From NCBI GenBank assembly GCA_015233155.1, contig JADFYG010000068.1, positions 1 to 31,550 on the forward strand: a stretch of 31,550 bases of DNA, in the 5' to 3' direction. The DNA comes from Candidatus Rifleibacteriota bacterium (GTDB lineage Bacteria; Muiribacteriota; Ozemobacteria; Ozemobacterales; Ozemobacteraceae). Position 1 is the first letter of the stretch, and the number at the start of each line of letters is the position of its first letter. A model generated the notes under the pieces. The model was not told where the DNA came from, searched no databases, and saw only the letters and a list, made by a program, of their open reading frames with translations. Below are positions 5,856 to 6,194 of this stretch, in pieces. The translations under genes were made by a program, and so were the position numbers.

Positions 5856-6018
5856 AGGTCTCCTCAATTCTCGCTGTATTCGGGGGTGGCGAACAGGATC
5901 TTTTCGCGACGTATTTGGACGACGGACCACCCCAGGCGGTTTATGTAATCGGAATTTGCTTTTCCGAGCCAAGTATATCAGTCAACGCTTTTGCGGGGCA
6001 AGAGCCGGGCTTTTTGAG

Positions 6019-6170
6019 CCAAGGGCATTTAATTCTCGACCGGTAGGGCAGCGACCGCCGGGCGCGCCGCGCCTTTTGCCACGAGCTTTATCGGCTGGCC
6101 CGGCGGTCCAGCCACCATTTCGTTGAAATCATGCAATGCAAGCCATTCGCGGGCGGAGAATTAAATGACC
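6019..6170. repeat. MITE-like or structured intergenic element, copy A. It is about 150 bp with 15 bp terminal inverted repeats (GGGCATTTAATTCTC / GAGAATTAAATGACC) and a GC-rich central hairpin.
   Basis: The left end is GGCATTTAATTCTC (about 6024-6037). The right end, GAGAATTAAATGACC (about 6156-6170), is its reverse complement.

The interior (GGTAGGGCAGCGACCGCCGGGCGCGCC...CCACGAGCTTT...GGCCCGGCGGTCCAGCCACC) can form a long imperfect stem.

The whole element is about 80% identical to the reverse complement of 14648-14794.

It is flanked by a direct repeat: GGCTTTTTGAGCCAAG at 6008-6023 and GGCTTTTTGAGCAAG at 6172-6186. Confidence 0.6.
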
Positions 6171-6194
6171 TGGCTTTTTGAGCAAGATGCGATG

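Follow-up and report, generated by a model that had tools for sequence, protein, structure and literature searches.

The window analyzed in this work is a contig of 31,550 bp (JADFYG010000068.1, assembly GCA_015233155.1) from the metagenome-assembled genome (MAG) of a Candidatus Rifleibacteriota bacterium belonging to the Ozemobacteraceae. It contains a co-directional gene cluster encoding an ECF sigma factor, a zf-HC2 anti-sigma protein and an Lcl_C/DUF1566 protein, and a composite repeat (copy A, Table 1) sits within this cluster, upstream of the DUF1566 gene. A second copy of the repeat (copy B), inverted relative to the first, is located between a divergent ABC-transporter gene and the transketolase gene (tkt), i.e., in a divergent promoter region and upstream of a promoter-like motif of tkt. 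An earlier note, made from the letters of this DNA without database searches, described copy A as a MITE-like insertion (MITE stands for miniature inverted-repeat transposable element) that lacks coding capacity and lies between the sigma/anti-sigma genes and the DUF1566 gene. The location agrees with the Pfam annotation, and the non-coding character holds as well, as the sole open reading frame (ORF) crossing copy A is a 218-aa shadow ORF (5470-6126, plus strand), mostly antisense to the DUF1566 gene. We lean towards the view that the feature is a MITE-like, non-autonomous, non-coding composite dispersed repeat, mobile in trans, whose core is a doublet of the type known as REPIN, an inverted pair of repetitive extragenic palindromic (REP) units; the element is probably mobile now or was so formerly.

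The limits of the repeat are defined by the comparison of its two copies, which lie 8.5 kb apart on opposite strands, both in intergenic regions. They have diverged by 19%: identity amounts to 81% inside the block and falls to approximately 45%, the background level, in the 40 nt beyond each end. The conservation differs between segments, with 13/15 identical positions in each of the inverted repeats and 21/26 in one of the two REP arms (the values for the other REP arm and for the remaining segments are given in Table 1). Homology overshoots the REP units by 19 nt on one side and 54 nt on the other, and stops at AT-rich inverted repeats. Within the block, the REP core is separated from the terminal inverted repeats (TIRs), which are 15-19 nt long and have AT-rich ends (GGTCATTTAATTCTC), by 4 nt at one end and by some 39 nt at the other. 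Judging from this alignment, the whole 148-bp block is the copied unit, not the REP doublet alone. Its size reaches 155 bp when the extended ends are counted, since the inverted repeats of copy A stretch to 18-19 nt if one indel is allowed (CCAAGGGCA... / ...TGACCTGG). The earlier note had placed the 15-bp ends of copy A correctly and had taken them for exact reverse complements; they pair at 14 of 15 positions. In copy B, 12 of the 15 positions form Watson-Crick pairs. All four termini have CCAGG(G)TCATTTAATTCTC in common. The 15-mer of the inverted repeat, with up to three mismatches, occurs at seven sites in the window versus 0.97 expected, and four of these sites are the ends of copies A and B.

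Table 1. Coordinates of the two copies of the composite repeat, their segments, and the features around copy A
Feature	Position	Strand	Sequence or structure	Basis or remark
Copy A, composite repeat	6023..6170	+	148 bp	Whole-length homology to copy B
Copy A, left terminal inverted repeat	6023..6037	+	GGGCATTTAATTCTC	Pairs 14/15 with 6156-6170
Copy A, REP unit L	6042..6068	+	GGTAG + GGC(A)GC + GACCGCCGGGC + GCGCC; one-base bulge in stem	26/27 identical to copy B
Copy A, spacer between REP units	6069..6092	+	24 nt	19/24 identical to copy B
Copy A, REP unit R (inverted)	6093..6116	-	GGT + GGCTG + GACCGCCGGGC + CAGCC; GTAG tag short of two bases	
Copy A, extension from REP unit R to right inverted repeat	6117..6155	+	39 nt	28/40 identical to copy B; least conserved segment
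Copy A, right terminal inverted repeat	6156..6170	+	GAGAATTAAATGACC	
Flanking direct repeat, left (S2)	6008..6023	.	GGCTTTTTGAGCCAAG	Flank comparison
Flanking direct repeat, right (S3)	6172..6186	.	GGCTTTTTGAGCAAG (= GGCTTTTTGAGC-AAG)	Flank comparison
Third, partial motif copy (S1), outside the element	5958..5973	.	GCTTTTCCGAGCCAAG	Read from sequence
Copy B, composite repeat, inverted relative to copy A	14645..14793	-		Repeat search (~14646-14797) and segment alignment
Copy B, terminal inverted repeat	14645..14659	+	AGTCACTTAATTCTC	Matches copy A right end
Copy B, REP unit	14698..14723	+	GGTAG + GGCGG + GACCGCTGGGC + CCGCC; canonical, fully paired	
Copy B, REP unit	14748..14774	-	GGTAG + GGC(G)GC + GACCGCCGGGC + GCGCC	
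Copy B, terminal inverted repeat	14779..14793	-	GGTCATTTAATTTTC	Matches copy A left end
Lcl_C/DUF1566 gene	4773-5858	-		Pfam; downstream of copy A
zf-HC2 anti-sigma gene	6195-6722	-		Pfam; upstream of copy A
ECF sigma gene	6694-7374	-		Pfam; upstream of copy A

Further copies, for which the earlier note had proposed a search, are represented by copy B, on the opposite strand and with its homology ending at the inverted repeats. The copy count covers the contig analyzed. A one-off segmental duplication, a gene conversion or an artefact of the MAG assembly would be in keeping with there being only two known copies, both on one 31.5-kb MAG contig. Such an immobile origin appears highly improbable, as the copies show substantial divergence, an inverted arrangement over several kilobases and sharp boundaries at the inverted repeats, whereas an assembly artefact would yield identical copies; moreover, the family to which the core belongs occurs independently hundreds of times elsewhere.

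REP units of the GTAG type are defined as short imperfect palindromes preceded by a GTAG tag on the 5' side, and often occur as inverted dimers, or REPINs (PMC3733652; PMC3337134). On sequence criteria, the GC-rich hairpin of the element is an inverted pair of such GTAG-tagged REP stem-loops, i.e., a REPIN-type doublet. The layout of a unit is GGTAG, a 5-bp covarying stem, GACCGCYGGGC, and the complementary strand of the stem. Among the four units of the window, two are variants with a one-base bulge, one is canonical, and one has a tag lacking two bases, so that GTAG is present in three of the four. In both copies, the tags of the doublet point outward and the units are separated by a spacer of 24 nt, an architecture shared by the metagenome loci described below. 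Where copy A has the stem GGCTG/CAGCC, copy B has GGCGG/CCGCC; the T-A to G-C change is compensatory. No plain REP or REPIN was detected elsewhere in the window. The earlier reader had taken the doublet for an anonymous stem of 20 bp or more; a GC-rich stem does exist at this place, and it consists of 11 perfect pairs (GACCGCCGGGC / GCCCGGCGGTC) and of an outer part with imperfect pairing.

The same REP type is widespread in another phylum. A scan of species-representative genomes with a 22-mer of REP unit L returned seven loci, six of them from Verrucomicrobiota MAGs, with the same 27-mer type as this unit. The Verrucomicrobiota loci have a motif of 27-32 nt (GGTAGGGC-N-GCGACCGCCGGGCGCGCC) in common and nothing else of the element; the inverted repeats of the window were absent from all seven loci. 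At two of the loci (L001 and L002), the motif forms short intergenic repeats, single or arrayed. L001 also contains, at 5213-5320 and 6258-6370, same-orientation arrays of three REP units alternating with a different GTAG-tagged hairpin, while the usual form is the inverted doublet.

When metagenomes were scanned for the inverted pair GACCGCCGGGC...GCCCNGCGGTC, at least 120 loci were found. Among the 120 metagenome matches listed, GTAG-tagged units are present in 94, and the rest look like chance matches in GC-rich DNA. A typical match consists of GGTAG, 5 nt, GACCGCCGGGC, 5 nt, a spacer of about 10-30 nt, and an inverted unit ending with CTACC. The metagenome loci listed comprise 241 units, of which 165 have GTAG and 167 have fully paired 5-bp stems, representing 16 stem types. 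The two 5-mers of a unit are mutually complementary and co-vary (GGCGC/GCGCC, GGACG/CGTCC, GGGCG/CGCCC, GGCCG/CGGCC, GGTCG/CGACC, and GGCGG/CCGCC). In the 95 distinct units, 96.6% of the small-stem cells are paired (65.7% in shuffles) and 133 cells are changed on both sides. Their covariation score of 0.659 compares with 0.150 for shuffled units and was matched in none of 500 shuffles; in a control with the partner slid by 1-3 columns, it did not exceed 0.17. Every unit variant is predicted to adopt the same DNA hairpin, in which a 6-bp stem is followed by a bulged A, two further pairs and a small loop. The outer stem covaries, whereas the inner hairpin G-A-CC-GCYG-GG-C is invariant, and the only variable base of the conserved 11-mer is the C/T of the loop. 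Most doublets combine two units with differing stems; what is conserved is therefore the unit's own small hairpin rather than the long one.

Genes beside ten of the metagenome doublets were looked up; seven had organism names, and all seven belong to Verrucomicrobiota (Opitutaceae, Candidatus Udaeobacter, Verrucomicrobiia). The REP type spans several lineages of this phylum, including Opitutaceae, Udaeobacter and Akkermansiaceae, and the verrucomicrobium O. terrae was reported to be rich in GTAG repeats (PMC3733652). Units also occur, mostly singly, on 12 predicted viral contigs (L135-L146). Among the Verrucomicrobiota metagenome matches listed, the sequence beyond GGTAG...CTACC varies from locus to locus, and the unit ends there. 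Additional flanks and AT-rich TIRs around a doublet were found only in the present window among the loci compared. A BLAST search of the fetched loci with the non-REP parts returned only chance words of 11-15 nt for the TIRs and the 39-nt extension, and the spacer of the composite had no exact match in the metagenome collection. Scans of viral contigs with the 22-mer and with the TIR pair gave 0 matches, and a distant blastn search of plasmids gave none. A literature search for the exact sequences returned unrelated primers only, and the motif does not appear as text in the supplements of Di Nocera et al.

The host of the element does not belong to the phylum in which its core is common. The window transketolase shows 85% identity to its counterpart in an Ozemobacteraceae MAG (L008), and the gene order tkt-PRK...RadC-MVP-shoulder protein is common to the window and this relative; because of this identity and the shared gene order, the contig is not a misbinned verrucomicrobial sequence. 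Neither the element nor a REP unit was found in seven Riflebacteria tkt loci (about 105 kb of non-redundant sequence), even when one mismatch was allowed in the 11-mer. Upstream of tkt, the homology shared by the window and its closest relative sets in roughly 16 nt from copy B; past this point the genes differ, and the region is rearranged in both the 85% and the 79% relatives. The break of synteny beside copy B would fit a rearrangement at the element with loss of one of its flanks, for which it is weak evidence at this evolutionary distance. Around copy A, close orthologues are lacking for the sigma, anti-sigma and DUF1566 genes: no homologue of the anti-sigma protein was found, and the best DUF1566 homologue shows 41-50% identity over part of its length. 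A motif upstream of tkt, TGGAAAAAT..CGGTTCATTGTATCTTT (window 14813-14850; L008 ~9900-9950; L010), is kept in the 85% and 79% tkt relatives and may act as a promoter or an operator.

The ends of copy A are abutted by the direct repeat that the earlier note had reported at 6008-6023 and 6172-6186. This repeat is borne out by the comparison of the flanks, in which the left and right copies agree at 15 of 16 positions. The local alignment of the 20-nt or 30-nt flanks of copy A reaches a score of 25, which was attained in none of 5000 shuffles, and the 99th percentile of the window background is 16. The repeated motif, GCTTTT(T/CC)GAGC(C)AAG, occurs three times in all: twice beside copy A and once free-standing, 50 nt away, where the earlier reader had overlooked it. 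As a third copy is found so close, the flanking motif constitutes a local repeat in its own right. In addition, the final five bases of the left direct repeat (CCAAG) extend the complementarity of the inverted repeats. In view of both the third copy and this continuation of TIR complementarity, the duplicated stretch may be 7-9 nt (e.g., the 9-nt CTTTTTGAG) or the full 15-16 nt, the motif may belong to the host and have served as the target, or there may be no target duplication at all. The resemblance to a target-site duplication, as claimed by the earlier note, is seen at copy A, where the repeat is significant, but not at copy B, and it is qualified by the third motif copy.

Both copies are predicted to fold strongly. 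The RNA of copy A has z-scores of -3.2 and -2.7 on the two strands, a result that answers the folding check proposed by the earlier note, and the hairpin of the block amounts to about -66 kcal/mol as RNA. The DNA folds have z-scores of -3.3 for copy A and of -5.2 and -7.0 for copy B. Rfam gave no match at the gathering score in the whole window and none up to an E-value of 10 around copy A; around copy B, only miRNA-hairpin noise was returned (10-21 bits versus cut-offs of 40-99). A Verrucomicrobiota doublet searched in E-value mode gave nothing useful, and the REP type is not in Rfam. A known RNA family, the outcome that the earlier note had named as calling for reclassification, was rejected on these grounds. 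An intrinsic terminator was rejected too, as neither strand has a T-run (U-tract) after the hairpin and the terminator scan was empty inside copy A. Promoter and terminator scans showed nothing above chance inside the element, and the terminator scan at copy B detected only short hairpins straddling its right end, in roughly the number expected by chance. Strand-specific G-U evidence for RNA, judged by eye, was dropped, as the wobbles of the inner stem speak for one strand and those of the terminal stem of copy B for the opposite one.

The strong folds on both strands raise the question of whether the block serves the host as a structured element under selection, either as an RNA hairpin involved in stability, processing or attenuation, or as a DNA-binding platform. 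The two copies are oriented alike relative to the downstream gene (DUF1566 for copy A, tkt for copy B), the small stem carries a compensatory change between them, and MITEs and REPs were reported to affect mRNA stability once transcribed (PMC3733652). Such a role seems improbable all the same: the contexts are unrelated (a co-directional cluster versus a divergent promoter region), the element is missing from relatives that have the same tkt locus, and with two copies the matching orientation is a coin-flip. Furthermore, a 2-nt deletion and an A/A mismatch have eroded the long outer stem of copy A, and the hairpin has neither a U-tract nor an Rfam family. An incidental effect on mRNA stability, as in other MITEs and REPs, is possible.

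Among the explanations that invoke movement, the principal alternative is an ordinary REPIN with long arms, copied as single-stranded DNA by a REP-associated HUH tyrosine transposase (RAYT) encoded elsewhere; the AT-rich TIRs would then be no more than the hairpin's outer portion and the direct repeat would be a host motif. The core units fit the definition of REPs in their tag, their covarying imperfect palindrome and their inverted pairing (PMC3733652, PMC3337134). Copy B without a flanking duplication and the third occurrence of the flanking motif at 5958-5973 are in line with this explanation, and so are the Pseudomonas composites of degenerate GTAG units and unrelated stem-loops as well as the RAYT-like genes flanked by long inverted repeats (PMC3733652). 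It is difficult to reconcile, however, with the extent of homology, which runs 19 and 54 nt beyond the point at which every other locus among the matches listed ends (GGTAG/CTACC), nor does it account for the direct repeat that abuts copy A. One of the four units lacks an intact GTAG tag, and plain REPs or REPINs are missing from the rest of the window. No RAYT or HUH-Y1 ORF was found in the window or in approximately 0.9 Mb of fetched loci, either by a scan for the HUH...Y..NP motif or by tblastn with an approximate E. coli RAYT query; two weak tblastn matches were discarded as unrelated ORFs. Overall, a long-armed REPIN is considered unlikely.

HUH tyrosine transposases (IS200/IS605-type) are the classical movers of REP-type repeats and leave no target duplication. 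An enzyme of this kind would be suggested by the REP core and by the bare copy B ends, while the TIRs and the duplication at copy A would point to a cut-and-paste or copy-and-paste transposase making staggered cuts. Several observations weigh against the interpretation of the block as a MITE-like element mobile in trans. A transposase of any kind is absent from the window and the fetched loci, and so is a parent insertion sequence with matching ends. Movement by an HUH enzyme without duplication suits copy B better than copy A. At copy B, the best candidate for a flanking duplication (GTTGGTTT / GTCGGTTT) is not significant, and at copy A, the third motif copy 50 nt away may mean that the repeat is a motif of the host or a favoured target, and not a clean duplication. 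No empty site was found in the relatives, in which neither intergenic region is collinear. Finally, just two copies are known, both on the one contig, and the evidence for mobility is thin.

With these reservations, the MITE-like, trans-mobile composite remains the reading to which we incline, and a tentative course of events can be outlined for it. The block would have entered this Riflebacteria lineage recently and would have spread by transposition in trans. The enzyme would most likely recognise the terminal inverted repeats and cut with a stagger, and the staggered cuts are the proposed cause of the duplicated GGCTTTTTGAGC(C)AAG, or of its 9-nt core CTTTTTGAG, around copy A. The duplication at copy B might have been lost through age or through the rearrangement that broke the adjacent synteny. 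Any effect on the host would be secondary: the transcribed hairpin could alter the stability or processing of the transcript running from the sigma/anti-sigma genes to the DUF1566 gene.

The MITE-like mobile insertion proposed by the earlier note therefore survives in part. A small, non-coding, TIR-bounded repeat is indeed present, in at least two copies in unrelated intergenic contexts, and is absent from the sampled relatives, but the flanking repeat is not general. The MITE label is also only half right, as a REP doublet lies inside the TIR-bounded unit and the phylum is unexpected. Known classes of bacterial repeats share different parts of this organization. Like bacterial MITEs (e.g., Correia/NEMIS, ERIC, RUP, and Nezha), the element is non-coding and falls in the range of 70-300 bp with TIRs of 15-30 nt; it is inserted in intergenic regions by genes, can form one long hairpin over its entire length and shows a candidate flanking duplication at one copy. 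Unlike them, its interior is a REP doublet of a family from another phylum rather than an insertion-sequence remnant, its flanking repeat has an unusual length (9 to 16 nt) and is missing at copy B, and the element has no known parental insertion sequence with corresponding ends.

The likeness to REPs and REPINs lies in the units of 24-27 nt, which are extragenic imperfect palindromes that bear a GTAG tag at the 5' end and have a covarying stem, inverted around a 24-nt spacer, and belong to a unit type abundant in Verrucomicrobiota, a phylum reported to be GTAG-rich (PMC3733652). The element departs from these classes in that its copied unit exceeds the doublet and reaches the AT-rich TIRs, that a 15/16-nt direct repeat flanks one of its copies, and that its host is a Riflebacteria MAG whose sampled relatives are without this REP type. 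The nearest published precedents seem to be the bacterial interspersed mosaic elements (BIMEs), the composites of GTAG units plus stem-loops, and the TIR repeats (TIRtrons) of Di Nocera et al. (2013). These are repeated mosaics of REP units and conserved non-REP motifs, and some of them are enclosed by long inverted repeats that have no relation to GTAG units. They were reported from Enterobacteria, Pseudomonas, Stenotrophomonas and Acidobacteria, differ from the present element in sequence and are associated with a tyrosine transposase gene, and the resemblance to the present element is one of description only.

REPs and REPINs are portrayed as vertically inherited companions of a single-copy RAYT, and MITEs are treated as deletion derivatives of insertion sequences. 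The block joins a REP/REPIN core with MITE ends, and does so in a phylum whose sampled relatives lack this REP type. Mobility of the block, if real, would show that a REP doublet can be packaged anew and set in motion by a different mechanism. A more specific proposal, which we regard as doubtful, is that a REPIN doublet of the Verrucomicrobiota type was captured in a TIR-bounded, duplication-leaving unit and is spreading in Riflebacteria independently of its own RAYT. Were this true, a REPIN would have crossed phyla by hitch-hiking on a different transposition system, whereas REPIN-RAYT systems are described as passing on mainly by vertical inheritance (10.1101/2022.05.22.493013). The REP type itself, with its invariant inner hairpin and covarying stem, is a candidate for testing recognition by a RAYT or a host factor and may match one of the published GTAG families of O. 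terrae. For annotation purposes, hairpins of this kind are to be treated as repeat elements and not as terminators or small-RNA genes.

Several other features of the window were recorded. The Lcl_C/DUF1566 gene contains an internal direct repeat of 189 nt (4969-5157 and 5443-5631, 75% identical), which results in a duplicated stretch in the protein. Another gene (2328-4712, plus strand) encodes a protein of 794 aa with an unusual combination of several Hint/intein-type matches followed by a Tim44-like domain. A protein with both MVP shoulder and Vault_3 domains is encoded beside RadC (23325-25928 and 22470-23315, both on the minus strand), and a separate VIT+VWA protein is encoded at 7581-9974 (plus strand); the vault-like protein and the VIT+VWA protein resemble portions of eukaryotic vault components, and the adjacency of MVP and RadC is retained in the 85% relative (L008). 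A loopless inverted repeat of 20+20 nt (9991-10030, 85% complementary), located between the VIT/VWA gene and a convergent ORF (10078-10524, minus strand), is probably a bidirectional terminator.

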